From Azolla caroliniana (lineage: Eukaryota > Plantae > Polypodiophyta): 64,000 nt of DNA. Below are positions 3,991 to 63,214 of this stretch, piece after piece; the stretch's first letter is position 1, and each line of letters starts with the position of its first letter. Below the pieces are notes generated by a model. That model searched no databases. It was not told the DNA's origin and saw only the letters and a program-made list of their open reading frames with translations. The stretch is from the NCBI GenBank assembly GCA_043228905.1, contig JBHGNT010000015.1, positions 9,672,001 to 9,736,000 on the forward strand, written 5' to 3'. The translations under genes and the position numbers were made by a program.

Positions 3991-4008
3991 TTCACGTCGG
4001 GTTCACCA
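3991..4008 (-). other. Primer binding site complementary to the 3' end of tRNA-Trp
   Basis: Plus strand TTCACGTCGGGTTCACCA matches the recalled 3' 18 nt of plant cytosolic tRNA-Trp; identical at 60748-60765. Confidence 0.85.
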
Positions 4009-8684: not shown

Positions 8685-8934
8685 AAATTTGGAGCTCGCA
8701 TGGGGGAGATATGACGCTTAGAAGGTCAATGTGTCATAACTAAAAATAGGAGATACAAAACTTCTAAAAAAAGCGTGAAAATGAGAAGAAGAAGATTATA
8801 AGAAGTGAGAACGGGAGATATAAGAAGTGATGCCTTTATAATAAGGAGAGACGAGTAAGGTGGTTGAGTTTTGGCCTACTTCTTGTGATGTTTTCTTGCC
8901 CATTCATGCATGTAATGTGGTTGAGCCATTATCA

Positions 8935-11750
8935 ATAGATCTTTGTGGTTTTGGATTTATATGTCTTCAATACGCCTCAATGGTAAATGGATTTTCGGGA
9001 TCAATGTGACCTAGGATAGGAGCTTATGTGAATGCCTCTTTCAGCTAAGTAAATGCCTTGTCCACTTCGATAGTCCAAATAGATGCTTGATTTTTCTTGG
9101 TGAGTTGGGGGAGGGGCAACACAATGGTTGAATAATTACATATGAATTTGTGATAGAAGTTGGCAAACTCGAGCAAACATTGGACATCTCAAACTAAACA
9201 TGGGGGTTGTCATTCTAATATTGTTTGGACTTTTGTTGGATCCATGAAAATACCTTTGAATGAAATAGTGTATCCCAAAAATTCGACTTGTTTGCAATCA
9301 AAACTGCACTTCTCAAGTTTGGCATAAAGACCATACTTTCTTAGGCGTTCAAGTACTTTCCACACATGTATATCATGCTCCTCATGTGTTTTAGAGTAAA
9401 TCAATAGATCATCTAAGTATATGAAGAGAAAGATATCCAAGAAATCCCACAAAATGTCATGTGCCATATGTTGAAAAACTACGGGTGCATTTGTGAGCCC
9501 GAAAGGCATGACTATATACTCGAAATGAACATACCGAGTGCCAAATGTAGTTTTCCACTCATCTCCCGATTGAATTCGAACAAGATTATATGCACCCCTA
9601 AGATTAAGTTTGGTAAAATTCGTTGCCCCACCAATGCACTCTCAAAGACTGGAGATTAAAGGTAGAGCATACCTATTTTGTATGGTGACTTTAAGCCTCG
9701 ATAGTCCACGACCAAACGAAGCGAGCCTTCCTTTTTCTTCACAAAAAAGATAGAAGCACCATCTGGAGACTTTGAATGTCGAATAAACCCATGTGCAAGA
9801 TCCTCCTCAATGTATTCTCAAAGAACCTCAAGCTTAGTTGGTGATAGATTGTAGACCGAACCCCACGGTGGCACTTTTCTTGGTTGGAGGTCAATGGGAC
9901 AGTCGTATGGCCGATGCTTTGGTAGTACACTAGCTTTGACTTTGTCGAAAACATCAACATATTCTTGATATTTTTTGGGAATTGGATGTCTGAATTCCCT
10001 TGAGTGGCACTAGAAGGTGACACTGATACTGCAAATAGGAAAAGATCCTCCTTTCCTCCCACTTGGCATAATTGTTGCAATGTGATGGTTGAAATTTGAT
10101 GAAAAGGAGGTTGTGCATTGATAGAACTACATTCTTTAAGGAAATAATCCTAGGTTCTATCCTTGGCAATGATGTTCTCTGTTGAAGGGAACCAAATTTC
10201 TCGCCTCCTCTAATCGATTATTGGGTTATGTAGCTCAAACCATGGCAAACCGAGGACAATTGGATGCTTAGAGCTACGGATTATGTTAAAGGAAACTACA
10301 CTTCCTAAATCACCTAAGAGTATATGGATTGGCTCAGACTCTTCGAATATCTTCCCGGAAGCTATGGGACGTCCATCAATTGAATCCCTAACTAGGCAAG
10401 GAAATGTATGCAAGGATATTTGGTGTTTTTGGGCAAAATCTCTATCCATGAAACAAGAATTGGCGTCGGTATCTAAGAGGGTTTGAACCTGAAGTTGACA
10501 AATCGGTGTCCTAACTTGTAGTTAGGGTGAGAAGACTCTACTAACAGGCTTGGAAGAAATGGAACCCACACTAGGTTGTACAGATCTAGGGTTGTCCAAC
10601 CAAATGGCTCCTATTTTGACCGGATTATTCGTTTTACTCCTCTTCTAATTGGCTTAGGATTATCTTCAAACTTATTGGACAGGGGTGGATTATTCATAAT
10701 ATTAGAATCACTAGATACTTCTAAAATGTTGGACTCATTTTAATTGTCATAGTGAATTTGATTTACCTGGCGTCTTGGCTTGCGGGAGCAATGAATGGCT
10801 ATATGTCCTGGACCTCCACAATATAAGCACAGACGGCTTGCTCGTCGTTGTTGCTTCTCTTTGTCCGACAACAGTCGTCATTGTTGGGTCATGTTGATCT
10901 CCATGGGTATAGGTCTATCCATTGGGACTGGACTACGTGTTTGCCTTAGAGATGATTGCACCATTACTGATGCATAAGTTGGTATGACTCTTGATCTTGT
11001 TATTTGTTGTTGTCGCTCACATCGATGCTCAAAAACGTAATTATCACACCATATTACTTGACTAATACCTTCTGTAAGTGATTTTGGGTTCTCAAGAAAG
11101 GTAAGAAGTAAGACTTTGACATCACTACGAAGACTGGAACGAAATTGTTTCATTAGGGCTTGTCCATCCCAAGGAATATTGCTTACGATGAGACGAAAAT
11201 TGGTTGCATATGTCGATGTTGGTTGATCACCTTCAGAGTGTACGAATCTTGTTGATTGTTTTTCTTGCCCCATCTGTATCTCCGAAGCAAGCCCTAAATT
11301 CTTTGAAAATTCCTCGAAGTTATTCAGTAGAGGAGAATTTGTCTCTAGTAATGGAGCAAATCACGATACCTCTAACCCGACTCATGATGCATCTATTTGA
11401 TAACAAATGGGATGAATTTGAATTACCAACCGTACTTGATTCAAGAAATATCGAAAATGCACCCTCAAACCATCAAATTTAGCTAGGAGGCTGATTTTGG
11501 GCTCATTGATCATGCCTTGACCTTCGACCCTTTGTTGTTGTAAAACTACGATTGTCAACTCTAACTGTTGAACCCGTCACGTAAACTCCTCTTGTTGTTG
11601 TTGCTTCTCCATAGTAACCTTTTCTAGATCTCCAAGTAGATGTTGATTCTCTAATTCAAGAGATGTGAACTTGGATTTAAGATTCTCCATTTCTGCAACA
11701 AGGGTGAGATATTCTTCTAAGATTCTCCATTTCCGCAACCATTTCTCCAT
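8935..11750 (-). mobile_element. Degenerate Tcn1-like chromovirus (E): gag, PR and RT remnants
   Basis: ORFs homologous to 39955-42700 (MPFGLTNAP, YLDD, VLGLPWFELHNP, IPWDGQALM); many stops. Confidence 0.87.
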
Positions 11751-12049
11751 TCTCCTTACAATAATAAATATATTACAAAAGTAGCTTTTATGGATTACAA
11801 GGTCCGAGGTTCAAGTTCGAGTGATGCTATTGTTCATGGCACTATCCTGGGCATGCTCTTTTCCTCCAACATTTCCTTGGCCGCTTCTACCATTGTCTGG
11901 TTCCATCATTCGGCCATGCCCTTCTATTCCGGCGTGTGAGTAAGTGCAGGAGAACTCCCTCCGGATTCCTTTGGTCTACTGGTGAACTAGCAGGAAAGAG
12001 TACCGCGGACACTTGATTTTCCTCTCTATTTCCTTATCAACTAAGCTTT

Positions 12050-28876: not shown

Positions 28877-30624
28877 TCATTCCCAGATTAATTTGCCACC
28901 AACATGAAGCTGTGAAGCATTTGATACATAATCTCTCAGTCCCGTATCTTCCACTTCACAAAATTGATGAGCCCAATCAGGGGGTTCTATGGCTTCAGTT
29001 CCTAGGCCTGGAGTTCTATCAAAGCTGTCCAGGTCTTTATTCTTCCCCCAATCTGTAACAAAAGTGGCGGCTCGCCTCACAAACTTGACCTTAAAATCTT
29101 CCCACACTTGGAACTTGTAGTGATGTATGACAGCATCATTTCGGGAGGCTTGTAAGGACACAAATCCTGACTTGAGCTCAAAATGGTGGACTCGGCTGCA
29201 ATAGGAGAGATCCATAGATGAGGGCTTCACAATGGACTTGACTCTTCTGGGATTTCTCATCCGCCATATGTAGTTCCACATTTGGCCACTCTTTGGAAGT
29301 CTTGTTAGGCCAGATGGCCCAAAATTGAAGTTGGAGATCTTGATCTGCCCAAGATCCGCGCCACTTGTAGTATTCTCATAATGCTTCACCATAACATGCA
29401 AGGGATTCCGTTCCTGCTTCTGGTTCAAAACATAAGCCTTGGGAAAGATGAACTCATCCACATCGATAAACGCCACCCATGTACACTCCCGGGAAGCTTT
29501 TATAGCACAATGAGAGAAGCTCGCCTCCTGCGTTTTTAGCCATGGCCATGGGTGCCTACTCACATTGTAGGCTTTCTTATTTAGTTCGTCGATCACATTC
29601 TTAATGTCATCATCACTGTTGTTGTCATAAATGAAGAACTTCTGGATGCCCAGGTGATTGTGGTACATAACCCATTCTTTTAAGAACTTGGCGGCATTCC
29701 ACATGAGTGTGCATGCACAAAGATACAGGTCTTTTGGAGGGTTACCATCATCCGAATGCAACATGCTTTGCCCGGGCTCAAACTTGACTACCGAGGGGAA
29801 TACCTTACCTTTGAGAACAACAGTGATCCGTTTCCCTGCAAGCTCACTAGTCCTGGGAAGTGGAGGAAGCCGACACCTCACGTTCTCCTGGCAGAAGTCA
29901 ACCACTTGAGTCATCGTCTCATCCCCAAACAGACATCCGAGAGCAGCAGGACGAGCACTTCTCTTGCCATGAGAGATGCCTTTGACGAACAGGATAATGT
30001 CACCTTCATTCTCAAGAGACGCCCATCCATACACTATCTTCTTCCAACCAACTTTCCCATATCTGGTAGCACCAGAGCTGCTGCCATTGTTTGCTGCGTC
30101 AATGGCCACAGGTCGGCCATCGATCTCAAAGGTAACAGGGGATCCCATCACTGATTTCCTCCCAACTGCCCCCACATCTGGCGGATGTTCACATCTCACG
30201 AATCCATCTTCCACTGAAAGGGCACGGGTTCGCACCTGACCTCCTGCATACTGATACGAGCATTTAATCCTACTACTTCTTCTCCCATGCCCCCGCACCT
30301 GCCTGCCTCCCTGGATCCCTTCCTCTCCTCCCTGTTCCATCATCATCACATCATCATCATCATCATCATCATCATCACCCAGGGTGGGACCTCCAAATAT
30401 GAGGAGCACAGTGTCATTGAATGTGATGGCACCATGTACTACTACTCGGGAACGAGATTCCTGCTTCTGCAACAGAATAGTAGAAGAAATAGGTCCATTT
30501 GAATGCTTGGCTTGCCTGGAAGATGGTGGAAGAGGCGGTTTTGCGTGCAGGCGTCCACCAACACAGTTCCATGGTCCAGCAGAACAATCTGAAGAAGAAG
30601 AAGAAAAACATGACAAAGTGAATT

Positions 30625-35425: not shown

Positions 35426-36245
35426 GAGGAGAATGGGTCAGATATGCTGACCAAGGTGTTCACGCCCGACAAGCTAGATGCATGCCGGAAGCGAATTGGA
35501 CTAACCAAACATCCCATGCTGGAGTGAAGGGGGAGTTTGTTAGGATTTCGGTCCCTCCGGATGGGATGATGAAGGCCCAGTGAGAACCAGATGATGAAGT
35601 ACCTAGCAACGGAAGACCTGGTGAGAACCGGATGATGAGTACCCAACAACGAAAGACCTGGTGAGAACCGGATGATGAGTACCCGACAACAGAAGACTCG
35701 GTGAGAACCGGATGATGAATACTCCGTAAGGAAGACCCAGTGAGAACCGGATGATGCAGGCCCAGTGAGAACCTCTCACCGGATGAAGGGACATAAATGT
35801 AAATGTCTCTATTGGCCCATTATGGCTATATTTGTAAATAGCTCGAAAGTCATATTAGTATAAATATGACCTAGGGCAAACAAAGGTCGTGGTAGATGAT
35901 GTATAGAGTTATTGGTGTAACTATTGTATAGAGTGTAACAGAGAGAGAGAGAGAGAGCGATACAGAGTGTGTCTCTGCTGTAACCGCCGCCAGGCGAGAG
36001 GTTGAGAGCAAGAGGTCGTTGCCTCTGTGCTCCTTGTTGTACTCCTTGACATAGTGATAGTTTGGAGTCTGTTGGCTCCCATGGTTTTTCCCTCTCAGGG
36101 TTTTCCACGTTAACATACTATGTACTTACTCTCTCTCATATTGTTTGTGTATACGTGCATTTACTTTCTTTGCCCATTTCTTCTGTGGTTGTGATTCTAA
36201 CGAAGTGATGGAAGTCTCAGTTGTGGCTGAGATATATTCCGCACA
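35426..36245 (+). mobile_element. Copia family F 3' end (F3): RNase H tail, PPT and 3' LTR 35538-~36245 with 40-bp tandem repeats (35580-35790)
   Basis: ENGSDMLTK; PPT GAAGGGGGAG 35526-35535; LTR homologous to F1 and F2. Confidence 0.82.
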
Positions 36246-38142
36246 CGCATATTTCGCGACAAGATATGCATGCACTAGCCGGAAGCATTCGAAGAAAAAG
36301 GTAAAGAAAACTTGGTATGCCGATAGAGAAAGAGCCTGTATGGGCTGAAGCAGGCACCTTGGCAATAGTATCGAAAATTCGAATCCTTCATGACCGACAA
36401 TGGGTACTGTCATAATGACACTCACATCATATCAAGATTTGACCCCACGACCTTGTTATATGCATGTCAAATCCTTACCCATTGTATTAATATTCTTATA
36501 TGTATAGTTTTTAGAATAATATTCTATATTACTCTACATTCTAGAATGACCTAGAATATTCTAGAGTGTTCTATACACTAGAACCTTCTAGAATACTCTA
36601 GAAACCTTCTAGATTACTCTACATTCTAGGATAACCTAGAATATTCCAGAGTGTTCTATATTACTTATAAATAGGGATCTATCAGTCATCCCAAAACTAA
36701 ATTGGTTCAACGCCATTCTATAGCACTATGTTGCCTACTCCTTGTAATTCAATAATATTTCCGTTTCAATTCTCTCTCTTTCTTTGTCTTAGCACTATAC
36801 TTCTCTCTCTCTCTCTCTCTCTTGGTGTTAAGCAAGGATGCCCACTCTCACCAACACTATTTGGTCTACGCATTGATGAATTGGAAGAAATGGTTACCAA
36901 GTTTGCAAAGGAAGAATGTGTTGAAGAAGTTGCCATTGGGAATGTTGTGATTATGCTTTTGCTATATGTAGATGATGTAGTGTTTTTTGCAAATACTTTA
37001 GGAGATGCACAAAACCTTATGAAGGCATTGGAAATTTTTTGCATGCATACTAAATTAAGTGTCAATAGCTCTAAAACGAAGATTATGCTTGTGAAGAGCC
37101 AAAAAGAGATAAACCATGCATTATGCACAACAATGAGCTACTTGAATGTGTGGAAAGCTTCAAATATCTTGGCCTTGAAGTTCCTTCAAATCATAAATGG
37201 AATGAATGTGCTACATGCCACCAAGAGGCAGGAAATCAATCGTACTATGCATTTGAGAACACATGCAATCTTGGAGATATTAAGTGTTGGGTCCTCAAGA
37301 AATATCTTTTCGACACTTTGGTGACATCGGTTCTTCTCTATGGGGTGGAAGTATGGGGCGGTAGCATCCCTAAATCTATGTTGAAAGATTTTGAAAATGT
37401 CCAAAAGCATTTTCTTACAAAGTTTCTACAAGTTAAGAAACAAACGCCCTACACCCTCCTCCTCCTTGAGATGGGATCGCTTCCCATTGAGATTATGGCC
37501 ATGGAAAGGGTTGTTGAATACATGCTTAAGGTTCAAAAAAGTCCCTCACATTGACTTCCTAGAATTGCATTGGAAGCAAGAAAAAAGATCCAAAAGACGC
37601 ATAAAAGCAAAATTTTGTGTTCCAGTTGGATGCAAGATATAGAAAAATGGTTTGGTAGATGGGATGCAAGACACTTGCTTCATGATGCATCACTAGATTC
37701 CTCTGTAAATGAGGCCTTTTTGCAATGCCAATGTATCATGACATAGGACAAATGTTGAGGCTCACGCTTCACACATTATACTACACATGTTGCACCTAAT
37801 TACAAAACCATATTCTTTGCGGAACAGGGAAACCGTACATATCGATACATGTTAGAACCCATACCATTATCTTCGATTCGAACAATTGCTTCCATGCAAC
37901 TTAGCTCACATGCATTGCGATGTGAGATAGGGCGTTGGGGCACAAGTTGTTACGGGCATGACCATTTAATATCCCGTGGTGAGAATTTACCGTAGTATTC
38001 TATACATGTGGATAAGTGTGAGGGTTAAACGAGAGTGTAAAGAAGGGGAGGATTACTTTTAATCCTCAGGATTGAGACAACCCATTAGGTCAAGTGTGAA
38101 CTTGCCTGGGGGACTTGGGTATCGCTATAAATAAGAGGCCTA

Positions 38143-39459: not shown

Positions 39460-39954
39460 TGTCATGATATGGCAAGACTCGAACCCATGACCTTAGGTTA
39501 TATGGGTCGAGCTCTTGACCATTAGACCATCTATTGTAATACGTAGGATATTATTTTCATTTACATTTTATTATAGGAAATTAGTGTATATTCCAGATTT
39601 CTCTGGAACATTCTAGAAGCTTCAGGATTACTCCTGAAAACACTATAAAAGAGGGCACTAGGCATTATGTTGAACCAAATTGGTTCAACGCCAGTCTTAA
39701 GCCTTTTAGCCACCGTTGTATATTCTCTTCATATAATAAATATCTTTCTTATCATCACTCTCTCTCTCTTTCTCTCTGTCTCGCTCACTTCTTCCTTCTC
39801 TCGAAGAAGTTCCACACCTCTCATAGTACTAATCCTTCGTTTAGTACTAATTCCTTCTCTGTCTCAGTACTATTCCTGACAGTTTGAACCAATTTTCCTA
39901 CCTTCTGTCTCTCTCATTTCCTACTAATCTTTTATTCCTCTTTTCTTTCATCCC

Positions 39955-41106
39955 ATGGCCACTGTTAGCGCTGAAGAATATCAATCTGTTTTCTCGGAAT
40001 TCCAATGCTTGAAGGAGAAGTTCCATGCTTTGGAACAAGAAAACCAACGGTTGCTGGGGGATCTTCAGCAAATCTCCTTAGAAAAGCAGCAAACGCAACA
40101 ACAACATGGGGAACTTGCGTTACGCGTGCAACAACTCGAAGCCACCATCGTAGCGATGCAACAACATGGGTCCGGAACACAAGGGATTCATAAAGAACCT
40201 AAGATTGGCCTTCCCACGAAGTTCGATGGAACGCGATCGCAGTTTAGAGGGTTCCTTAACCAGGTACGATTAGTTATTCAAATGCATCCTTCCCGATATC
40301 CCACCGATGCATCACGAGTGGGTTTAGTAGGCACTTTGTTAAGTGGCTCAGCGTTGTCATGGTTCGCTCCACTATTAGAAAAGGAATCTCCATTACTCAA
40401 CAATTTTGAAGAGTTTCTAGGTGAGTTTAAAGCATGTTTCGGAGATACTGACATCATCAGGACCGCAATCAACAAAATCCGGCGATTACGCCAAGGTGAC
40501 CGTCCAGCCTCCGCATACGCTGCAGATTTTCGCCTACTCGCCGCCGATATCCCTTGGGATGATCAAGCGTTGATGGAGCAATTCCGTTATGGTTTACGCA
40601 ACGATGTCAAGGATTTACTCTTGACCTTCCCCGAAGAGCCAAAGTCCTTAACAGAAGCAATCAGTCGTGCGGTGAGATGTGACAACCGCCTCTTTGAGCG
40701 ACGTTCGGAACGACAGCTACAGATGCCGAGGGCAAGAACAGAGCCCACCTACGCCTCAGTGGTAGCAAGACCTTTTCCGAGGGAGTCATATAATGCGTCT
40801 CCACCGAATACTCCGACTCCGATGGAGATTGACACTACACGTCGTCGAGGGCCATTATCCGAAGAAGAAAAGCAGCGACGCCGTACAAATCGACTATGTC
40901 TTTACTGCGGTGGACCAGGACATATCGCAATAAATTGCCCCCATAGGCCAAGAAGACAGGTAAACCAAATAGTCGCTAGTTCTAATTGTACTAAATCCGA
41001 ACCTATTTCAGTAGGGATATCTGATAGTCCTAATAGTACTAATATCCCAGATCTAGCAAACAAATTTGATGTCCTTAGTCAGTTAGAAGAAGAGTTAAAC
41101 GACTAA
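39955..41106 (+). CDS. gag: Gag of B (coiled coil, capsid, CLYCGGPGHIAINC knuckle)
   Basis: Intact 383-aa ORF; PTPMEID motif. Confidence 0.92.
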   Translation: MATVSAEEYQSVFSEFQCLKEKFHALEQENQRLLGDLQQISLEKQQTQQQHGELALRVQQLEATIVAMQQHGSGTQGIHKEPKIGLPTKFDGTRSQFRGFLNQVRLVIQMHPSRYPTDASRVGLVGTLLSGSALSWFAPLLEKESPLLNNFEEFLGEFKACFGDTDIIRTAINKIRRLRQGDRPASAYAADFRLLAADIPWDDQALMEQFRYGLRNDVKDLLLTFPEEPKSLTEAISRAVRCDNRLFERRSERQLQMPRARTEPTYASVVARPFPRESYNASPPNTPTPMEIDTTRRRGPLSEEEKQRRRTNRLCLYCGGPGHIAINCPHRPRRQVNQIVASSNCTKSEPISVGISDSPNSTNIPDLANKFDVLSQLEEELND

Positions 41107-44100
41107 GTCCAGCCAAAATAGGAGCCGTTTGGTTGGACAGCCCTAGATCTGTGCAGCCCATTAGTGGTTCCATTCCCTCTAAGCAAGTTAGTGATGTGTT
41201 CGTAGCCCAAGTAATAGTTAGTACTAAAAGTACCCCTCCAGTACATGTCCTAGCACTCCTAGATTCCGGAGCTAACTCTTGCTTTATGGATAAGAAATTT
41301 GCTCAAGCTCATAAGATATCCCTAAGAAAACTCCAGTGTCCAGCCTCTGTAGTAGTCATTGATGGACGTCCCATTGCTTCCGGAAATATCCTAGAAGAGT
41401 CAGAGCCCATTAATATTGTCCTAGATAACTTAGTATGTGTAGTATCATTTAATATTATTAGTATCCCAGAACATCCTATAGTTTTAGGACTACCGTGGTT
41501 CGAGTTACATAACCCTGACATAGATTGGAGAACAAGAGAAATCCGGTGTCGACAAACCCAAGGGTCAACTCAGAAGATGGCAACCATTTCGCTACGTTAG
41601 TTGCGTAAAGAAGGGCACAAGGAGGAAATGTTCCTCTTTGCAATATCAGTAAACCCCTCCAACACCACTAAAGAAGAATCCACCGTTCAACTTCCCGAGA
41701 AGTATCGCCATTACACCGATGTGTTCGATAAAGTACAAGCCAACACACTTCCTCATCATCGACCGTACGATTGCCCCATCGATTTACAACCGGGAAAAGA
41801 GCCGCCATGGGGACCGATCTACAATTTGTCACCAACCGAGCTGGAAGTCCTTCGGGCCTATATAGAGGAGAATTTGGAAAATGGTTTCATTCGGCATTCG
41901 AAATCTCCAGCTGGTGCGCCCATTTTCTTCGTCAAGAAAAAAGATGGATCGCTTCGTCTCGTTGTAGATTACCGTGGCTTGAATAAGGTTACAATCAGGA
42001 ATAGGTATGCTCTTCCCCTTATCTCAAGTCTTTTAGAACGGATCAATGGTGCCAGGTTCTTCACGAAGATCGACTTACGGGGAGCATATAACCTCGTACG
42101 GATTCGACCAGGAGACGAATGGAAGACCGCGTTTCGCACCAGATATGGGCACTTCGAGTATACTGTCATGCCGTTCGGCCTCACTAATGCGCCGGCAGTC
42201 TTCCAGCACATGGCTAATGATATATTCCGAGATCTATTGGATGATTGTTTGATCATCTATTTGGATGATCTACTGGTTTATTCAAAGACCCAAGAAGAAC
42301 ATGATTCTCATGTACTATTAGTACTAAAACGACTTCGAGAACATGGTCTGTATGCAAAGCTAGAAAAATGTAGTTTCGGGTGCAACCAAGTGGAATTTCT
42401 CGGCTACATCATTTCATCAGAAGGCATCTCCATGGACCCAGCTAAGGTCAGAACTGTGGTAGAATGGCAGACTCCGCGTTCGGTATGGGATGTACAATGC
42501 TTCTTAGGCTTTGCCAATTTTTACCGGAAGTTCATACAAGATTACTCAAAGATCGTTCTACCTCTCACACAACTTACCAGGAAGGGACAACCGTTCACCT
42601 GGTCTGAAGAAACGGACATGGCTTTCGAGAGTCTTAAAAAAGCATTTACATCGGCTCCAATTCTAGCTCATGTCGATCCGGAGAAACCATTCATTATCGA
42701 AGCTGACGCATCGGATTTTGCATTGGGGAGCATTCTGTCACAACAGGGGAATGATGAAAAGCTACATCCTGTGGCTTTTCACTCACGCAAGTTTGATGCC
42801 GCCGAAATCAACTACGAAATCCATGATAAGGAGCTATTGGCAATAGTGGATTCTTTTATGCAATGGAGGCATTTTCTGGAGGGATCCTCTCATCCAGTCA
42901 CCGTATTTAGTGACCACAAGAATCTTGCCTACTTTCAGGATGCTCGTGTGTTGAATCGACGTCAAGCTCGGTGGGCCCACTTCCTCACGCGTTTCGACTT
43001 CAAAATTACATATCGTCCGGGGAGGCACCAAGGGAAGGCAGATGCATTATCACGGCGTTCGTATCTAGCACCCCGTCCCGGCGAGCCAGCTTTCGATAAC
43101 CAAAAACAAGTCATCTTGGGACCGGCACGATTACAAGCAACACAAATCTTTGACATGCCTATGGATTCCCGCGTTATCGATACCATACGTGAAGACTTGA
43201 AGACAGATGCGTTCGCCCAAGCTATACTAGCACAAATTGATCCCTCTCGAGCGTCGTGTTCACAGTCGCAACCACCAGGTACGGACTATCGGCAATTCAA
43301 ATACCATGATGGATTACTCTTCTTTAAAGAACTTTTGTATGTTCCTAATGGTTCTTGCCGCCTTCGAGTAGTACAAAACTGTCATGACACATATACAGCT
43401 GGGCATTTTGGTAGTACTAAAACATTACATTTAGTACAACGATCATTCTGGTGGCCCTGTAGGCGACAATTTGTCGAGGATTTTGTTCGGACTTGTGATA
43501 CATGTTGCAGAGCGAAAATGCCAAGGCATCATCCATATGGTTTATTAGAACCATTATCAATTCCAAGCAAGCCGTGGCAATCCATTGCTCTAGACTTCAT
43601 CACAGATCTTCCAGTCTCTAAGGGGTTCAATGCGATTCTAACGGTGGTCGATCGATATACGAAGATGGCTCATTTCTTGCCATGTACTAAGGAGATCTCC
43701 AGTGAAGACACTGCCGAAATTGTCATGCGTGAAGTATGTCGGCATCATGGACTCCCCGATAGTATCATCAGCGACCGTGGACCCCAGTTCGTGTCAAAAT
43801 TCTGGAAGCACCTTTTTAACATGCTCAAGGTCACTTGTAACCTCTCTTCCGGCTACCACCCACAAACTGACGGCCAAGCTGAAAGAACAAATCAAACGTT
43901 GGAGCAGTATCTGCGGTGCTTTCTCAGCTATCATCAAGACGACTGGGCAGATATTCTCCACTTCGCCGAATTCGCCTATAACAACTCTATCCACGCATCC
44001 ACTAAAGTTACGCCATTTTATGCTTATACGGGATGTCACCCCCGGTGGAGTGTACTTGAAACCCCAGAGGTGTCCACAAATCCGTGCGCGGAGGATCGTT

Positions 44101-45423
44101 TGGAGCGGTTACGCAAGATACAAGCGGATTTATCTACTCATCTCCAGCAAGCTCAACAAACACACAAGGTCTACGCGGATCGTCATCGACTTCCATCTAG
44201 TTTTAATATTGGAGATCGGGTGTGGTTGCTACGACGACACATCAAGACTACTCGCCCATGTGAGAAGTTGGATTATCGGCGATTAGGTCCTTTCCGTTGT
44301 CGTGCCTTTCGGCTCCGGATCGTTTGCGTGAGTCGGGTGGGAACCACCGGGGTTTTGGACTAGGAAGAAGAGAGTTTTAAGGCTAATAAGAATATAAATA
44401 TGTTGTAAGAAAGAGTTATAGCAAACTCGTGAATCCCACGAGTGTATTGTATTAGATTAATCAATATGAATATAAGAATATAAACTTCGGTTGAAAGAGA
44501 ATGATATAGAATTCTCGCGAATCCCACGAGTATAGTTTATTAATTGGTGTTTTTTAGAAACATATCTAGTTTCCAAATATTTTTCACACACAATTACATT
44601 GTGCTCCCCATCCTTATGTAGTGATGAGGAAGTCTTAGTAATCCATGCTTTTTCTCTAACTATAGACCCCATGCTTTTCCTATAGATAGACTATATGCTT
44701 TATCTAAAGTGATCATGCTTTTTTCTAACTTGTGCGTTTTTTATCATGCACGCTAGATGTGTATGTGTAGCTTTTTCTTTTGTTATGCGTTTTTCTAATG
44801 TTTATCCTAGCGTGAATTTACCTTTCTATGTGGGACATCTATGCTTTAACACTAATGAAATGCTAGTGTAATGGTAAGACATTACATTATTAACATGGAG
44901 GTGCAAGGTTCGAATCTTGCCCTATGCATGTTCCATTTATTTTGCTATTTTCTTCTATTTCTTCATTTTTTATTGAATCTAATACTATATACGTTTTTCA
45001 CGTAGTGTACAAAATACACTACGACACCGTATTATTGGAAAGATTAATGATGTTGCTTTTCGTCTCGATCTACCTCCTCAACTTCGGATACATCCGGTGT
45101 TTCATAGTTCTCTCTTCGAACCCTACCACGAGAGCACCATCCCAAAACGTCTTATCCAACCTCCACCCCCGATCGAGCTTGAAGATGGGCCGGAGTACGA
45201 GGTTGCCGCCATTCTTGATTCCAAGATTGTTCGCAACAAGCTCTACTATCTAGTCGATTGGCTAGGCTATAGTCCCAGCGAACGTACTTGGGAACCGATC
45301 GAGAATGTAACCAATGCTCGTGCTCTTCTTGAAGACTTCCATCGTCAATATCCACACAAACCGGGTCCTCAATCCAAGACGACTCGTGACACTCGTCGTT
45401 TTAAAGGGGGGATAGTGTCATGA
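41094..45423 (+). pseudogene. pol: Pol of B (-1 frame): PR (LLDSGA), RT (YLDD), RH, IN, group I chromodomain; one stop at 41598 and a solo-LTR insertion
   Basis: ORFs 41133-41600, 41601-44363 and 45097-45423; GPFR|IIGKIN is restored when the solo LTR is removed. Confidence 0.93.
44298..45026 (-). mobile_element. Solo LTR of family A (A2)
   Basis: TGTCGT...ACGACA flanked by a perfect 4-bp TSD CCGT. Confidence 0.94.
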
Positions 45424-45710
45424 TATGGCAAGACTCGAACCCATGACCTTAGGTTATATGGGTCGAGCTCTTGACCATTAGACCATCTATTGTAATACGT
45501 AGGATATTATTTTCATTTACATTTTATTATAGGAAATTAGTGTATATTCCAGATTTCTCTGGAACATTCTAGAAGCTTCAGGATTACTCCTGAAAACACT
45601 ATAAAAGAGGGCACTAGGCATTATGTTGAACCAAATTGGTTCAACGCCAGTCTTAAGCCTTTTAGCCACCGTTGTATATTCTCTTCATATAATAAATATC
45701 TTTCTTATCA

Positions 45711-45758
<48 letters not shown>

Positions 45759-45862
45759 GCTCACTTCTTCCTTCTCTCGAAGAAGTTCCACACCTCTCAT
45801 AGTACTAATCCTTCGTTTAGTACTAATTCCTTCTCTGTCTCAGTACTATTCCTGACATCTGT

Positions 45863-47372: not shown

Positions 47373-50260
47373 TGTTACGGGCATGACCATTTAATATCCC
47401 GTGGTGAGAATTTACCGTAGTATTCTATACATGTGGATAAGTGTGAGGGTTAAACGAGAGTGTAAAGAAGGGGAGGATTACTTTTAATCCTCGGGATTGA
47501 GACAACCCATTAGGTCAAGTGTGAACTTGCTTGGGGGCCTTGGGTATCGCTATAAATAAGAGGCCTAGCTACCCTCATTTGATCATCTTTTGACTACATC
47601 GAGACTCTGGTCTTGTGGTGGGTCAACTCTTGTAGCGAGCGCGCTAGCACCAGGTATGACTCGACGCCACAGCGGTGGTATGGGACACCGATCGGGGCTC
47701 GAGTCCATCTCGATCCCTTCGCTCGGGGGTGGATCGGCACCCTTCTTTCTCTTTCTCCTTTCTATCTATCAATACTTTATCCTTATCTTAAGCTTACTTT
47801 AGTACCTAGATCTCTAATACAAGTGATGAGAGTGGTCGACTATGCACACTTTGCTCTGAACAAGTTCGCGAATCTGAGTATCACACTTTGATACAATGCT
47901 CTGCCATTGATCATATCCGACCATGCTTTCCACATCTCTTCGACCGAGCCCAATCCTTGCATGAATTCCTCTCACAACCATAATGCGCACGCTTGATTGC
48001 AACATTCATTGGTAAAGTTCTTGAACATCGAAAGTCACTACTCACTTTCACATATATCACGTGAAATGTAATATTTTTGGTCTCATAGGTCATATTTGAC
48101 CTACGAAGACGATAATATAATCTATCTATCTATCTATTTCTCCATCTTGACAGCTTGAACCATTTTTTTCATTTCTTCCTCTTCCACAAACCCTAACAAG
48201 TTCTCGTCTTCCTTCTCCTCTCCCCTTGTAAGCTATGGAGTCTGTGAGCAAATAGGAGTATATGCGTGTTCTTTCTGAGCTCAACATTCTCATGAATAAA
48301 TTTGTGGCATTAGAGCATGAAAACCAAAGGCTACTTGGGGACCTACAACAAGTGAGCACCGAAAAAGCTCAACAATATGAAGAGTTATCGCAACAGGCTC
48401 ACCAACTTGAGGCGACTATATTATCATTATGAGAACAAGCATCGGGGGGTCAGAACTCCCCTAGAGAACCAAAGATTTTCCTCCCTGCCAAGTTTGGTGG
48501 TACGAGGTCTTTATTTCGAGGCTTTTTGAATCAAGTTCGTCTAGTTATTCAGCTACATCCCAATCAGTATCCAACTGACAATGTTCGTGTGGGATTAGTG
48601 GGAACTTTGTTATGCTGTACGACATTAGCATGGTTCACACCACTTCTCGAGAAGAAATCACCATTGCTAGAGGATTTCGAGGCATTTGTTAAGGAGTTTC
48701 AAGCTAGTTTCGGAGACACTGACAACAATAGGATAACGATAAACAAGATTTGAAGGCTCTGACAAGGAGATCGTCTTGCGTTGGCCTACGCATTTGATTT
48801 CCGTCTCTTGGCATGCAGTATCCCTTGGGATGAGGCGGCCTTAATGGATCATTTCCATCAAGGTTAGGGTAATGATGTTAAAGATCTTCTCCTTACTTTC
48901 CCTGAAGATCCGAAGTCGCTCACAGAGGCCGTGCGATGTGATAATCGCTTATTTGAGCGATGTTCTAAGCGCTAACAAATGTTATGCCGTCAACCAGAAC
49001 AGACTTACGCTTCCGTAGTTGCAGCACCTCCACCAGTTTCCAGACCCATTACAAGGGATGGCCCAACTCCGATGGAAATAGAGTCAATAGAACGTCATGA
49101 GCCTTTATCAGATGTTGAGCAGCAACGACGTCGAGCGCATCGCCTATGCTTGTATTGTGGCGGTCCAAGACATATAGCCATAAATTGTCCACATAAACCT
49201 AGACGTCAAGTATACCAAGTAACTGCACATGACAACCATACTTCGAGTTCCATTGTTACTTCTAATAACATAAGTAAGCATCATAGTCCTTGCCATGAGA
49301 ATAGATTCGAATGCCTTGAGCCAATTAGAGGATGTGTTAAACGAGCAAGTCCGGCCAAAATAGGAGCCATTTGTTTGGACCATCCTAGCTATGTAGAGTT
49401 AGTTCCTCGTCGTGGTTCCATTTCATCAAATCAAGTGAGTAAAGTTTTTTTTGCACAAGTCGAGCTTACCACATCTACATGTCATCGAGTCCTAGCCTCT
49501 GCCCTCCTAGATTCTGGAGCCAACTCTTGTTTCATGGATCGTGAATTTGCATTGTCACAAAACATTCTCTTGAATAAGCTCCCAAGCCTAGTAGCCATAG
49601 GATTGATTCATTGATAGTCGAGGAGTCCAAGCCAATTCGGATAGTTCTTGGCGATTTGGCAATCATAATCTCTTTTTCAACATTATTCGTAGTCCGGAAC
49701 ACCCAATAGTTTTAGGTCTCCCTTGGTTTGAAGTCCATAACCCGAAGATTGACTGGATGAAAAGAACAATTGAGGAGACCCGGGAAAAAAGCACAAACCC
49801 CGCATCCCTTAAATCTCCGACGTGATACTAGATCCCCTGAGTTATCGACCATCTCTCTACGACATTTGCGTGAGGAAGGGGGGAATGAGGCCATGTTCGT
49901 CTTCACAATAGTAGCAACTTCATCATCCACTTTACATGAAGCAGACATTAAACCACCAGAGAAATACAAAGAGTTCTCAGACGTCTTTGATAAGGTGAAG
50001 GCCAATACATTGCCGGAGCATTGGCCATACGACTGTCCTATCGATTTACAACCAAGGAAAAAACCTCTATGGGGTCCAATTTATAATCTCTCCTTGTTAT
50101 GTACACATAATGTTGGTGAGGGTAGGTCACTAATATTTACATTAGTGAAGGGTATGTTCACTAATGTTAAAAAGGGGCTAATGTGATTGGATAGAAGGAA
50201 TGATAGGTGCATGCACTATCATGATTTGGGCAACCAATGAATGGAGACCCTTTTAGAAAG

Positions 50261-53300: not shown

Positions 53301-56300
53301 TTGGTTCAGGCTCACTAGCCTCATCCTCCGGTATCCGGTCGGGGTAGGAAGTTGGAGCCGATAAGGCATACCATGATGCCGTCTCATCAAACTCAACATC
53401 CCGGCTAACTCGGACCTGCTTCGTCCGGGGGTTATAACACTTATACCCCTTTTGCTCATGCGAGTAACCGACCAGGATGCATTTCTCTAATTTTGCATCC
53501 AATTCCTCCGCTTCTCATCAGGCACATGCACATATGCAATGCTACCGAATATCCGAAGGTGTCTCAAATTCGGCTTGCATACGAAATACAGCTCATGTGC
53601 GGACACCTTGTCACCGATCCGGTTTTGGATGTAGACGGTCGTTCGAACCACCTCCGCCCAGTAGAAATGGGGCATGCTCTTCTCCTCCAGCATTGCCCTT
53701 GCCGCGTCAACAATCGACCGGTTCTTCTTTTCGGCGACACCGTTTTGTTCCGGTGTGTATCTGCAGCTAAACTCTCTCCGAATTCCTTTTTGCTGTAGAT
53801 AACTGTTGAATTGGCTGGAAAAATATTCTTTTCCGCCATTTGACCATAGGCACTTGATCTTCCTCTTCGTTTCCCATTCAACCAGGCTTTGCAGGTTCCG
53901 GAAACACTCGAAGACTTCGCTCTTCCGCTCAATGAGGTAGATCCATGTGGGCCGGTTGTAGTCGTCGATGAAGGAGACAAAATACCAACTCCCACCAAGA
54001 CTAACGTTCTGTGTCGGTCCCCATACATCCGAACGAATAAGGTCAAGCTTGTTACGGCCACGGTTTCGTTCGGTGGGGAATGGAAGCCGGTGTTGCTTCC
54101 CGAGTTGGTAGGCTTCACATATTTGGGCCTTCCGGCCACTGAACTTCGGCAAACTGAAAACAACTTGTTTCGTTTGGAGGTCTTGAAGTCTCCGGGAATT
54201 GACGTGGCCGATCCGCTTATGCCACAAGTCGATGTCCGATTTGACCTTCTATCCTTTGGTGAACAAAGCGGTGCCTACGTCATTAGTGTCGAGGATGAAC
54301 ATCCTCCCGTCTCTACGTCCTTGCACAATAATCTGGCCCTCTTCCTCGATGAAGCACCCAAGGTGCGTAAACCGCACCTGCATCCCCTGGTCAACAATCT
54401 AACCGATTGACACCAGGTTTTTCGTGATAGTCGGAACGTGTAATACGTTCATCAGCTTCCCCCTCTGTCCGACATGGCTCACAGGGACTTCTCCGACATG
54501 CACGATTGGGTGAGGAATGTCATCCCCGGTTTCGACGACTCCCTGTGTCGTGCCTTTCGGCTCCGGATCGTTGCGTGAGTCGGGAGGGAACCACTGAGGT
54601 TTTGGACTAGGAGGAAGAAGAATACAATATAAGGCTAGTTATGAATAAGTAGAAAGAGAAGTAAGAAATAAAACTTGTGAATCCCACGTGTTTAGTGTAT
54701 TTAATCAATATTTAGATTGTAAGAAAGAGAATTTTGATGATAAACTCGTGAATCCCACGAATATATTAGATTGATCAATCATTGTAAAAATAATCAACAA
54801 CACCATACATCTTTCTCTCCTCTTTATATAAGGATGGAAGAGGCTAAGCATGGCTTCATGCTTTTTCTAAAGTGTTCATGCACAGTAAATGTGCATGAGT
54901 TGTTTTTTCCACTATACTCCTATTTCCTAAATATAGTGCTCATGCATGCCAGATGTGCACGAGTAATTTTTTATTGGTGTACATTTTCATATTTATAAAT
55001 TTGTCTCTTCATCCGGTGAGAGACTCTCACCGACCTTCTTTATCCGGCTCTTGCCGGTTTTGCTTGATCCGGTTCTTACCGGTTCCTCCTTGTCCCATCT
55101 GGAGGAACAAAAATGCAATTTTCATGTAGTGTGCGAATTACACTATGACACTCGCCCCCTCCAAACCCGCACATCCTCCGGTATGTGCCGAAGTTCCCGA
55201 AGCTTATTATTCGCCTTCATCCGTAGCACTCTCCGATTCTCCCCTTATGTCGACTACGAGTTGAAGTCCACTTTCTTCGCTTTCCACATCACCGCGATCT
55301 TTGTCCGGTTGCTCCTCGTTGTCGGTCTTGTCTAGGGTTACATAGGGTTTGTCATCAGTCCGCTTCTTGAAGATCTTTACCTGTTTCCCCGCTATAGGCA
55401 CTCATAGTATCGTTCCATCCAATTCGCATAGTCGGTAAGTTCCGTTGTCGAAAACTTTCTGAACCTCGTATGGCCCGAACCACTTTTTCGTGAACTTCCG
55501 TATCGTTGCATGTTGATGATCCAAACTACTGTCATAGAAAATCATCCAATCTCCTTCTTCAATCTTCCGTGGTCATAGTCGGTGCTTTGTGTCGAACCGG
55601 CTTTTGTTCCGGAATCACGCTTCTTGTTGTCGACGTGTTGCTTCCGCTATGTCTTCCGGTCTTCCCTCTAGTTGTCGTATCCGGACCGCTAGTAGTTCTT
55701 CCTGGCTCATCTCGTCCTTCCACGGTAGCATTGTCCATGTCGCGATCATGGTTTCCATCGGCATTACCGGTGCTTGTCCGGTCATAAGTTCTGTCGGCAT
55801 ATAACCGGTTACGGGGCTATGCGTCGTCCGATCCACCCATAGTGCAGACGGGAGCATCTGCGGCCAATCCTTCACCCTTCTGTCGCATGCTTTGGAAAGT
55901 GCTTTGACGATCGGACTATGTCCTCGTTCAATTTTCCCGTTGGCTTCCGGATTGTATGCCGTTGTTAGTGTTAACCGAACTCCATGTTTGGTGAAGAATT
56001 CCCCAGCTTTATCAGAGTTGAGTTCTCCCCAATCCGCAATCACTTGTCCTACGCACCAGTACCGGCAAAACACTTCTTCGAAAAGAAATTGGCATACCAT
56101 AGAACACATTTTTCTCCGTAGCGCTCGACCTTCTACTTGGTTTGTGAGATCTTCCCGAGCTAACACCAAGTACTTCTTTTGTCCGATCCCGGTTGGCATG
56201 GCTACAATGTCGACCATCCATTTGAAGTTGATTGTCGGATGTAATTCATCTCGGTGTCAAATTCCGGAGTAGATTTGACATTTCACGCAGCTTTCCGTGA

Positions 56301-59300: not shown

Positions 59301-62207
59301 GCTATTCCGAGTAATTCCCGAAGCGAAAACTCCACCCGGCTATGGAGGATTCTCTCTTCGAACACTTTTTTCAAGTCCGTTTGTTGTTCAATGTCCGAGG
59401 CGAGTTTGAATGCCGAAATCGTCTTTTCTTTTCCCTTCCCTCCGGAGTTCCAACTTTCTGGTGTCTTTGATGGTTCGGCCGCATCATCCGTGCGCCGTTG
59501 TTTCTCGTCTACATACACCTCATGCAATTGGCATAGGGTGTGTACACTATTCTTATCAACGGGACACTCCCATCCCGTAGCTTCTCGGATGCCTTCCGCG
59601 GTGCTTCGGATATCATTGGAATCGGTTTTCTTGGGGTTTCCTAGCACTTCCGGCCAAAAAGATGCCTTTGCTCTCGATGACTCCCCGACACGTATTCCCG
59701 CAGTTGTTGCATAATCGCTTTTTGCCGCTATTTCCTCCTCATGGACCTTCTTCATGCCGCCTTTCCAGAAGTTCGATTGGATGGCTTCCGAGAGTCCATG
59801 GAATGGATCCGATTTCCGTCGTAGTAGATAAGATCCCATCGTAACGCCTCCTTGTGCTTGTTGCAATCCCTTTGATCATGTTCCGTGCTATCGCACCATA
59901 TGCACCAACGGTCCATATACTTGGAGCTTGTGGGACGATCATCCGACTTCTTTACCATCGTGATTTTCAGATTGTCCATTTCTTTCAGCAACTGCCCCAC
60001 TGTGGTTGCATCGATTCCCTTCTCGGTCGTAGTCTCCCGAGCCCTCGGTTGATGGTCTTCCAATCCGGATCTCGGTTTTGGAATCGGTTTTGAAACCCTC
60101 TTTTCTTCGCTACCAAGCCATTGACCCCTCTTCGTGTATCGCGCGACGATATCCCACACGCTTTCCCATGTTTTGGTGAGGCCACTCTCAGTGGTTGTGT
60201 CCTCCAAAAGCACTCCAAGATCTTTTCGGTCCCGGATGTCCACGGCTTGTAGGAACATGATCACTTTGTCCGGTGCGAGGATAGCTTGATCTCTCGCAGA
60301 CAACCTCCCGAACCGACTTTCAAATGATGAAAACACATCGAGGACCTTCATCCCCTTATCTAATGTTTCCACCCAATCTTCGAATCCCCTCCTCGTTGCC
60401 TTGGAGGAGTTCTAGATGGTGAACATGGTCTTTAACGCCTCTTCAAATGCCTCCCACGTCGGATTTTGTTGTTGTATCCCGTGGATACTCCCTTGAAGCC
60501 CGTCGGTCGCCACCTGGTTGAAGGATGTCACTAGCAGTCCTTCTGAAATCCCGCACAGTAGCATTTCCGCCTTGTAATCTCGCAAATATCGCAACACGTC
60601 TTTCCCGTTGAATTGCCCGTTCCGTTGCACGAGCTGCTCTACTGCCACCGCAATCTCTGACATCGCGCGTGTTCTTGTAGCATCCGCTCAAACATAGCCA
60701 TCATGTTGTTAGCCCCCAGTTGATTTTCCATCTCCTTGCCACCCGGTTTCACGTCGGGTTCACCACTTATGTTTATGTCGTGCCTTTCAGCTCTGGATCG
60801 TTGCGTGAGTCGGGTGGGAACCACTGAGGTTTTGGACTAGGAGAAAGAAGAATACAATATAAGGCTAGTTATGAATAAGTAGAAAGACAAGTAAGAAATA
60901 AAACTTGCGAATCCCATGTTTTTAGTGTATTTAATCAATATTTGGATTGTAAGAAAGAGAATTTTGATGATAAACTCGTGAATCCCACAAATATATTAGA
61001 TTGATCAATCCTGCCCTATGCATGTAACAATCTTTTTTTTCCTATTTATAGATTTGTCTCTTCATCCGGTGAGAGAGTCTCACCGGCCTTCTTTATCCGG
61101 CTCTTGCCGGTTTTGCTTGATCTGGTTCTTACCGGGTCTCCTAACCGGGTCCTCCTTACCGGGTCCTCCTTGTCCCATCCAGAGGAACAAATATGCAATT
61201 TTCACGTAGTGTGCGAATTACACTACGACACTGGTTGTTTTGGTTTCTCCAAGAAGGAGAACCACTCTTTGTGGCTTGTCATGTGATTCGACGCACTGGA
61301 ATCAACGTACCACACTTCCTTCGATTTGGAAATGGTCTTCTTCATCAAGTTAGCCTTGTGTTTCACCACCAAGGCTGGCTCTTTACCGGCTTTTCCGGTT
61401 TTGGATCCTCCCGATCCTTCTGCGTAGTGCGAGTATTGCTGGTTCTCTCTGCCAGCCTTGCCGGATTCGGATCTGTCCGAATCGGCATGCTTCTTCTAGA
61501 ACTCACTTTCTCTATGGCCCTTTTTCCCACAGTACCAACATTCCGTGTCGGCCTTTGCTTGCCGACCTCCGGCACCGCCTTGACTCCCCCTGCTTGTGGA
61601 GGGTCCGGAACTACTGTTGGCACGTTCTCTGTGCCTTCGGTCCTGCTCTTGCCGGCCGCTACCATTGCGAGCCGACCCGCCTTGTCCACCATGCCCACGG
61701 GGCCGATCTGCCTCCGTGTACAACATCCGACTATTGGTGGGTGTACTTGTTGACGCATCGGCGTGGTTCTCCTCTACAAGGAGTATCGACTGTAAGTCAA
61801 AAAATGACGGTGTATTCTCCCTTGTACACACAACAGTTCGGAACGCTCCAAACTTTGACGCCAAACCTCTGAGACAGATTTGCACCATATCGGCTTCTTC
61901 GATATTCACATCGATGGGGGCCAAAGAGTCGCAGATGTCCTTGATTTTTGAGGTGTAGTCTGCCACCGACAAGTCGCGTTGTCGTAGGTTGCTCAGCTCC
62001 TGTTGGAGTTGAAGCTTCCTATCTATAGTGCTTGTGGCGAAAGTCTTCTTCAGATTTCCCTAAGAATCTTTTGGTGTTTTTGCATCCCTAATGTAGCTTA
62101 GGAGCTGTTCGCCCACACAAGACGTGAAGCAGTACAATACTCTGCTTGCCGACTGTTCGCACACCGGGAAATCTCTGTGTGTCAATTCGGGTGTTGTGTC
62201 ATTTGAA
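50261..62207 (-). mobile_element. Copia family H copy H4 (3' LTR 50261-50701; body 50702-54545 plus 61231-62207), split by A3; 5' end missing
   Basis: RH, RT (YVDD), IN and gag ORFs; PPT; protease continuous across the insertion. Confidence 0.9.
54546..61230 (-). mobile_element. Full-length, decayed family A Gypsy (A3)
   Basis: LTRs 54546-55150 and 60776-61230; PBS-Trp 60748-60765; PPT 55151-55162; gag-PR 58728-60731; pol 55207-58730; no chromodomain; imperfect 4-bp TSD CCTG/CTGG. Confidence 0.93.
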
Positions 62208-62410: not shown

Positions 62411-62977
62411 CATCCGTATGAATCTGTCAAGGTCGTGCTTACTGAGCCAATCCCTAGTGGTTGTCGATAGTGCCATAGGTTCCGTATTTTCTTCGTTGAC
62501 ATCGTTGCTACGGTTGGGTGCTTGTGCTCTGTGACTTGCCTACGCTTTTCCAGTGTCACGAAAATATGACAAGGATACGTGAACTTGAGGCACGACCCTA
62601 GCGCCTCCGACCAAAGGATATCAGATTCGTGCGTTTATATTTTTAACAATTAACGTAAATGAGAAATTTAGTATTTTTTCATTAGCAAAGGAAAAGAAAT
62701 TACAATATGTCCCAAGATTTAGATTCCGAAGTTTTAGGTTTACTGAGATTAATAGAAAAGAAAAATTAGGGGTTTTGAGAGATATGGCTTCCGTAAGGAA
62801 AATTAGGGTTTTTGGCTTTTTAGAAAATTATCGTTCTTGAGTGTTCTAGCTTCGATAAGATAAGGGAGCCGAGAGGGGGGGGGGGGGGGGGGGGGGAATG
62901 GAGAAAAGAAGAGAGTGCAATATATACGGAGTTCTTTGTTGATCAGAGCCTCGCATGTTCCTTTGCATGCGTCCACT

Positions 62978-63092
62978 TTTAGTTGCATGGCCTCCATTTT
63001 TGGTTGCTTGCCCTTTACTTTTGGTTGCATGGCCTCCTTTCTTAGTTGCTTGGCCTCCATTTTTAGTTGCGTGGCCTTTACTTTTGGTTGCG
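62978..63092. repeat. 21-bp tandem repeat (~5 units)
   Basis: Unit TTTT(A/G)GTTGC(A/T)TGGCCTCCA-like; 7-aa periodicity in the overlapping ORFs. Confidence 0.9.
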
Positions 63093-63214
63093 TGCGACTG
63101 TTCGTTTAATTCAGCCACACGATCCAATCATCCATAAAAAGTTCAGCCCGTGTAACTTGTATGTCGCAACCAAACCATGCGTTGCAACTGAATCGTAGAT
63201 GCGTACATGCGCGC

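Follow-up and report, generated by a model that had tools for sequence, protein, structure and literature searches.

The window analysed here, a 64-kb stretch of Azolla caroliniana DNA, contains a single host gene surrounded by nested plant retrotransposons. The gene encodes a glycosyltransferase; Ceratopteris (61%, across two thirds of the query) and Adiantum (55%) supply its best named relatives, as against 40% for Sphagnum (Table 1). The best-preserved element of interest, B, encodes gag, protease, RT, RNase H and integrase and measures ~5.7 kb without the solo LTR A2, which interrupts it; the copy also carries one in-frame stop, and its two LTRs differ by one mismatch and a 20-nt gap at a (CT)n tract. 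Instead of a tRNA primer site, B has at 39884-39893, after the 5' LTR, ten bases complementary to 39679-39688, which lie ~30 nt past the TATA box; this is the self-priming layout given for Tcn1 and Tf1/Sushi elements (PMC6317226). Because this predicted transcript start maps downstream of the tRNA-like module described below, the module of B was placed in U3. A C-terminal chromodomain is indicated indirectly through a close relative, P0003 (91% identical in RT-RH), which carries PF00385 and whose residues 1028-1158 align to 45028-45420 at 76%. B can be described as a self-priming, Tcn1-like chromovirus present at very high copy in fern DNA, the likeness to Tcn1 being one of layout.

Family A is represented by three elements, encodes pol and has named relatives in Riccia (50-70%) and Adiantum (66%); no chromodomain appears in the Pfam lists among the 120 relatives listed. 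Its RT-RH is 22-26% identical to that of P0003 and falls in a separate, fully supported clade of a quick tree of 30 rows built from sequences other than named reference elements, so that the description of A and B as unrelated Gypsy lineages in an earlier note on this DNA is fair. A primer-site-like stretch starting with TGG, a putative match to tRNA-Trp, lies at 3993-4008 (- strand), with a matching site after the A3 5' LTR; these sit 4 and 10 nt past the LTR end, not 1-2 nt.

Among the other residents of the nest, the chromovirus that hosts B (element C, 37948-38142 and 47373-47821) carries an internal deletion that fuses its 5' LTR, from just past the TATA box, to pol; it lies within LINE-like sequence and is without a module. 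Tandem arrays are found at 8371-8692 (54-nt units), 35572-35756 (about 40-nt units) and 62948-63115 (21-nt units), the first two inside Copia-like LTRs.

Table 1. Positions in the window of the host gene, the elements and LTRs, and the tRNA-like modules within them
Feature	Position	Strand	Remarks
Glycosyltransferase gene	28877-30622		host gene
Element B	39460-45857	+	self-priming chromovirus-type Gypsy; 5-bp TSD TCTGT
B 5' LTR	39460-39881	+	
B 3' LTR	45416-45857	+	after PPT 45403-45415
B LTR TATA box	39644-39650	+	predicted Pol II promoter; ~115 bp from A box and divergent from it
B predicted transcript 5' end	39679-39689	+	10-nt complement to primer site 39884-39893
B 5' LTR module	A box 39529-39519; B box 39485-39475	-	boxes 33 nt apart; B box 15 nt from LTR tip
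A box of B 5' LTR	39519-39529	-	3' half ATGG doubles as hairpin arm
Long imperfect hairpin in B	39464-39530	-	pairs D-arm side with B-box side; also folds on sense (genomic RNA) strand
B 3' LTR module	A box 45485-45475; B box 45441-45431	-	
D module	36435-36489	-	one mismatch in each box; D, a lone LTR related to B, starts at 36408
A1 5' LTR	4013-4732	-	
A1 module	4563-4642	+	A box 4563-4573; B box 4606-4616; T4 run 4639-4642; spacing 32 nt
A2	44298-45026	-	solo LTR of family A in B integrase region; 4-bp TSD CCGT
A2 module	44864-44943	+	A box 44864-44874; B box 44907-44917; shared flank; T4 run 44940-44943; spacing 32 nt
A3 5' LTR	60776-61230		boxes deleted
A3 5' LTR module remnant	61011-61040	+	3' flank and T8 run kept; boxes deleted at 4-nt AATC microhomology; A-only profile E 0.04
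A3 3' LTR	54546-55150	-	boxes and flank removed by a different deletion from that of the 5' LTR
Possible half-module in F	11800-11841	+	AGGTC and B-box-like 11808-11818, no A box in register; E 1.3, weak

tRNA-like modules in the LTRs

Scanning the window with A- and B-box consensus sequences, and comparing the result with 60 order-3 Markov simulations of the window, gave three strict A+B pairs against none in each of the 60 simulations, which rules out a chance origin of the modules. When one mismatch per box was allowed, the scan returned exactly the five modules of Table 1, where the simulated mean was 0.28 for spacings of 25-60 nt or 0.05 for spacings of 30-36 nt. All three perfect B boxes of the window lie inside modules, and the B box of A1 has a single mismatch, a C-to-T change at CpG. 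The A-B box spacing is tRNA-like in all five modules (32-33 nt), all five are antisense to gag-pol, and they can be assigned to U3 because they lie upstream of the TATA box of the LTR. These results confirm the boxes, the spacings of 33 nt (B) and 32 nt (A) and the antisense U3 location that the earlier note had reported for the five modules, as well as its view of the D module as decayed.

Several observations bear out the derivation from tRNA that had also been proposed. In a box-anchored alignment all modules are in tRNA register, including an AGGT at the position of the variable loop. Against the Rfam tRNA model (cut-off 29 bits) A2 scored 13.4 bits, over model positions 8-63 and with a single inserted base, and B gave no match; an ARAGORN search of the window called no tRNA gene. 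A functional tRNA gene is ruled out by these two sets of results. At a lowered threshold ARAGORN made 209 calls in the window, which we regard as noise. The further claim that no anticodon or acceptor stem had been kept needs rewording: no tRNA is called, and the stems are decayed, not wholly absent, as A2 retains three of four D-stem and three of five anticodon-stem pairs in the Rfam alignment. From the variable loop through the B box, 18-19 nt of B have exact blastn matches to phage records; these are weak (E 2-8), and three of the ten records are annotated as tRNA-Met or tRNA-Val. A2 gave only two irrelevant matches to phages. No 5S sequence was present among the 19 Rfam matches to E 10 in the window or in the tRNA-model runs.

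The earlier note had regarded sporadic SINE-type insertions with TSDs as evidence that would count against it. We recognized no SINE-type TSD or 3' tail around the modules, and the block is family-wide for both A and B in all four DNA runs examined. The sequence upstream of the modules is AT-rich; B has a TATA-like run and CAA, A1 and A2 share AACACTAA instead, and no clear TATA or CAA is common to all. Judged on their sequence, the modules are tRNA-like without being tRNA genes, and capture from a tRNA gene or a tRNA-derived SINE is their likely source. Of the two former T-stem strands of the B module (39483-39492 and 39470-39476), the 5' strand matches natural tRNAs but the 3' strand is the pairing partner of the 5' strand of A2, as would be seen in a chimeric module or in one that the hairpin described below had rewritten.

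Layout and conservation in family A

The LTRs A1 and A2 are ~60% identical overall, and their similarity is unevenly distributed. Pairwise identity is 10/11 in the B box, 9/11 in the A box (both changes being at degenerate positions), 11/14 in the 3' flank and 28/33 at the LTR terminus, as compared with 5/14 in the spacer and 26 of 62 columns just upstream. A free spacer between fixed boxes is the conservation pattern that marks a promoter. Contigs from four DNA runs, collected on A2 at 80% likeness, point the same way with the proviso that depth here adds up short contigs and does not measure copy number, and that diverged flanks are clipped: in all four runs the depth of the B-box bin was ~5 to 17 times that of the flanking bins (44840-47 and 44944-51), of the same order as the LTR terminus, and that of the A-box bin was only slightly above the flanks. 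Variants were listed at 9 of 68 module positions and 25 of 96 flank positions (p 0.05, in a rough test with clipped flanks). The main variants of the B box fall at CpG (C to T in 22-30% of depth, G to A in 6-23%), as expected for ageing copies. Loose contig ends in both families A and B lead to other subfamilies that have different spacers and A boxes fitting the consensus.

Downstream of the B box, the first T4 run occurs at +22 in A1, +22 in A2 and +21 in the A3 remnant, with different intervening bases; a randomly chosen start point gives such a position in 5-7% of cases in these LTRs, and most loose ends behind the family A flank also reach a T-run there. Family A thus seems to be laid out as a whole Pol III unit, with a predicted RNA of ~90 nt containing two hairpins (fold z -3.8 for A2). 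The module holds as a feature of the family in A1 and A2; the third element, A3, is without boxes in both LTRs. It is likely that A3 had boxes when it inserted, because its 5' LTR keeps the flank and T-run beside a four-base microhomology. The box region was lost from the two A3 LTRs by distinct deletions, and the module, or its hairpins, may be prone to such loss.

A hairpin in family B

In family B the corresponding segment folds as one long hairpin, in agreement with the earlier note (z -4.6 on the antisense strand, with none of 200 shuffles as stable), and it folds equally well on the sense strand (z -4.9). We consider it possible, though unlikely, that the hairpin and not a promoter is what has been selected. 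The tRNA-like piece would then be the raw sequence from which a stem-loop at the start of U3 was made, with the boxes surviving as parts of the stem, and the structure, placed after the PPT in genomic RNA or at the end of the cDNA, could help plus-strand priming, strand transfer, 3' end formation or packaging. Alongside the sense-strand fold, the distribution of variants favours this alternative. Among the best 40 of 75 rows, variants occur at 3 of 63 positions in 39460-39522 compared with 18 of 111 upstream (p 0.03), and this low-variation block coincides with the hairpin: all three of its variants fall within the loop or next to it, and the stem shows no more variation outside the boxes than inside them. 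The B box has no variant in the same best 40 of 75 rows. The A box varies at 7 of its 11 positions, which are precisely its unpaired 5' half (7/7, including T8, G10 and A14, in up to 22-33% of depth) and which vary about as much as upstream U3; the remaining ATGG pairs with CCAT in the 3' flank. Conservation of the boxes above flanking U3, which the earlier note had proposed to check, is supported in family A and weakened in family B.

Comparison of B with D shows 19 shared pairs, of which three are changed on both sides and none is broken, D having gained hairpin pairing at the cost of B-box bases; around the B box, A1 and A2 have 13 stem pairs in common, again with none broken. These pair counts come from two sequences each, in two of the three cases B and D differ by C-G to T-A, a change that methylation decay favours, and the A1/A2 stem has no two-sided change. 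The fold is moreover no better than shuffles for A1 (z -1.1), D (z -0.4) or L001, the related locus described below (z -1.4). Further difficulties for a selected hairpin are that A and B fold differently and lie about 110 nt and 15 nt from the LTR tip, respectively, yet share boxes and spacing, and that the fixed T-run of family A is left unexplained. No T4 run exists inside the B LTR: the first past the B box are at +209 for the 5' LTR, in the flank, and at +283 for the 3' LTR, in the end of the integrase region, and that of D is at +57, outside the LTR. For family B taken by itself, a hairpin accounts for the observations no less well than a promoter does.

Distribution among relatives and common origin

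Of 105 related loci, 76 reached the end of the polyprotein, and an LTR tip could be called in 39, with some miscalls possible; the metagenome relatives were drawn from 2 of 64 parts of the set and have only 35-67% identity. A module was found in one of the 39 tips, that of L001 (55% protein identity), where it is degenerate with two mismatches per box, antisense, in the same place, with 33-nt spacing and AGGTC. The rule that L001 satisfies was also passed by 9 of 1560 shuffled tips, and L001 was the top profile match (E 0.03 in 641 kb). Its sister L002 has no module, and the sequence of L100 (70% in RT-RH) ends before the LTR tip. Within the window, F is a sister family of B whose element lies on the - strand with a truncated LTR tip at 11841, where a possible half-module is seen. 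This tip of ~90 bp (11750-11841, - strand) is fused directly to the gag start by a deletion and is preceded by GGATAG, like the PPT end of B. A profile search of the C and Copia LTRs yielded nothing significant, searches of viral contigs with the B integrase, the shared motif and the family A alignment gave no match, and the exact motif shared by A and B occurs in none of the 105 loci. The module is lineage-restricted and losable, and possibly old in the B clade.

Other features of these relatives were seen with or without a module: L002 (1854-2040), L001 (4134-4462) and L100 (1-290) have a self-priming hairpin after the TATA box and TTCTAGAA-rich repeats in U3. Six of the loci, L100, L101, L102, L103, L104 and L105, are eukaryotic Gypsy sequences on contigs filed under bacterial genomes, most likely through assembly contamination.

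The proposal that A2 and B share a 3' flank ending in CATG, and that the module was exchanged between families, could be upheld only in part. Beyond generic tRNA features the two families share eight of the nine bases after the B-box core (chance about 3e-4), and profiles cross the family boundary weakly, A1+A2 finding B at E 0.003 and B+D finding A2 at E 0.08. The CATG of B is part of the LTR terminus TGTCATG, which is present also in the module-less relatives L002, L020, L067 and L078; the case for exchange is weakened because this leaves only the eight of nine bases. A shared donor for the A and B modules is plausible on this similarity, and a common tRNA or SINE donor would also explain both the flank and the weak cross-family matches.

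Discussion

We have described a putative tRNA-like (type 2) Pol III promoter that lies backwards in U3 of two Gypsy lineages. The best explanation, which we put forward tentatively and at somewhat less than an even chance, is that a tRNA-type promoter was captured and then retained for the binding of TFIIIC and TFIIIB, just upstream of the Pol II TATA box. TFIIIC would bind the B box and set TFIIIB 30-50 bp inward, between module and TATA box, and the two factors could maintain a nucleosome-poor, boundary-like patch at the outer edge of a fresh LTR insertion. Such a patch might help the LTR promoter to resist silencing spreading from the surrounding nest of dead elements. In family A a short RNA of ~90 nt would arise as a by-product; the B unit, which is without a terminator and now folds as a hairpin instead, would serve chiefly for binding; and old copies would lose the site through CpG decay or deletion. 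The two families may differ, with a promoter in A and a hairpin in B.

For this promoter reading we count the boxes, which are far above chance and in exact tRNA register, the free spacer between the A1 and A2 boxes, the fixed T-run, the A2 depth peak and the L001 module. Against it we count the coincidence of the conserved block of B with a hairpin, the broken B box of D, the share of family A depth (22-30%) with a C-to-T change in the B box, the barely raised A-box bin of A2 and the lack of a shared upstream TATA or CAA. The module must also be dispensable in relatives, because both A3 LTRs and L002 are without boxes. Barrier activity of tRNA elements is documented in yeast and animals, and we found no plant evidence of it in the literature examined. 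Recruitment of TFIIIC and TFIIIB, termination at poly(T) and the action of tRNA genes as insulators are established (PMC13578239, PMC11346459). As CpG methylation excludes TFIIIC (PMC11346459), shielding would be limited to young, unmethylated copies, and the site may not resist silencing.

We think it improbable that the antisense Pol III RNA is itself what matters, as a source for small-RNA pathways, a decoy or a means by which the element limits its own copy number. That RNA would be a short two-hairpin molecule in A and, in B, a hairpin with read-through across the PPT and the chromodomain end. The complete promoter-terminator layout and predicted structured RNA of family A suit such a role, as does the position of the first T4 run 283 nt past the B box of the B 3' LTR, where read-through would cover the PPT and the end of the integrase region on the antisense strand; the Pol III microRNA cassettes that foamy viruses carry in their LTRs (PMC3993851) and the antisense RNAs of Ty1 (PMC12786077) are precedents. 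The transcribed spacer, however, is the least conserved part of A; the fold predicted for A is unlike that for B and, in the 5' half, is not the same in A1 and A2; the hairpins of A are shorter than expected of a microRNA precursor; and an antisense RNA would normally promote silencing of the element.

Similarly improbable in our judgement is that the modules are passengers, that is, a fragment of a tRNA or tRNA-SINE that entered master LTRs, was copied along and is decaying neutrally, its apparent conservation stemming from motif ascertainment and alignment bias. Loss from both A3 LTRs, absence from L002 and from 38 of the 39 related LTR tips, and decay at the CpG of the B box in roughly a quarter of the family A depth would all be accommodated, and Kojima noted that 'not a few' Repbase LTRs hold partial tRNA-like sequence, in a study of which the relevant part analyses TRIMs alone (PMC10886601). 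Yet A1 and A2 have kept boxes and flank while their spacer diverged to near-random identity, the B-box block is common to subfamilies about as widely as the integrase-binding terminus, and the module is without a recognizable TSD or tail. For family A the passenger reading is already hard to hold.

That the module is a landing pad or decoy for elements integrating at Pol III start sites, as yeast Ty3 does, is very unlikely: Ty3, Ty1, Tj1 and Dictyostelium elements are known to target Pol III genes, but none of the five box-bearing LTRs of this heavily nested window has an insertion just upstream of its A box, and A2 landed in the B integrase about 400 bp from the nearest module. Priming by a module RNA was set aside, as B self-primes and both A3 and B have a PPT.

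Returning to a retained TFIIIC/TFIIIB site, a bolder version of it is that autonomous Gypsy elements of seed-free plants captured a portable Pol III cassette and passed it between lineages as a TFIIIC-bound U3 shield (in family A also a small antisense RNA gene) that keeps new insertions active in heterochromatin. We regard this as unlikely on the sequences at hand; if true, host tRNA machinery would have furnished these elements with a counter-silencing device acting in cis. If TFIIIC binds the modules at all, very abundant LTRs would scatter many potential boundary sites over the fern genome and would offer a simple test of tRNA-type elements as plant chromatin barriers. If instead the hairpin matters, a tRNA relic would have been recycled as a replication structure.

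Comparison with known systems

LTRs with Pol III promoters have already been described in short non-coding TRIMs, which use them in place of the Pol II promoter, and in foamy viruses, which produce microRNAs from them. A conserved backward promoter in U3 of a coding Gypsy element cannot replace the Pol II promoter as in TRIMs, which suggests another use. Our literature search returned no description of an antisense tRNA-type promoter in U3 of a coding plant Gypsy; supplements and Repbase entries may already list such LTRs.

With regard to the lineages themselves, B resembles Tcn1 and Tf1/Sushi elements in its self-priming layout and its chromodomain-bearing close relative (PMC6317226), and a PCR survey reported no Tcn1 clones from ferns (PMC2864245). 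Family A, a short non-chromovirus with liverwort and fern relatives, resembles the Phygy and Selgy non-chromoviruses (PMC2864245). The pertinent sections of these papers describe no tRNA-like LTR sequence in either group (PMC6317226, PMC2864245).

The foamy virus LTR has an A box, a B box and a T-run terminator in an autonomous retroelement that Pol II otherwise transcribes, and yields structured short transcripts; these units are retroviral, experimentally shown and microRNA-yielding and, in the relevant passages of that source, are not described as tRNA-derived, in contrast to the tRNA register, short A hairpins and predicted transcript found here (PMC3993851). In Culex, cqgypsy_1 has tRNA-like sequence at a Gypsy LTR, for which insertion of a SINE (Twin) was suggested; that case, confined to a single family, comprises two foldable tRNAs with CCA ends, together with a duplication of 26 nt where the 5' LTR meets the PBS, whereas we find a box-only U3 module in several families (PMC3286476).

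Parallels also exist among plant and other TRIMs. Cassandra likewise has a small-RNA-derived Pol III promoter in plant LTRs, but its promoter is 5S-derived (type 1) and drives the RNA of a non-autonomous element, and the modules here are without a 5S match (PMC10886601, PMC12786077). Helenus/TRIMp3 elements share tRNA-derived A and B boxes inside the LTR, conservation centred on the boxes and loss of tRNA function (PMC10886601). Their proposed origin is a SINE insertion into an LTR, with one plant case, from Selaginella, and their autonomous partners were expected to rely on Pol II (Kojima 2024, PMC10886601). Helenus elements are 311-1263 bp long and non-coding, in contrast to the families here, which encode gag-pol and keep a TATA box (PMC10886601). 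The Helenus promoter was proposed to transcribe the element itself, a sense use that is implied by the model, the orientation of the boxes not being stated in the relevant text, whereas in all five modules here the boxes point away from the element's transcript (PMC10886601). What is new relative to Helenus and Cassandra, as far as the sequences indicate, is a tRNA-type promoter module that is antisense and in coding families, and it is best developed in family A.
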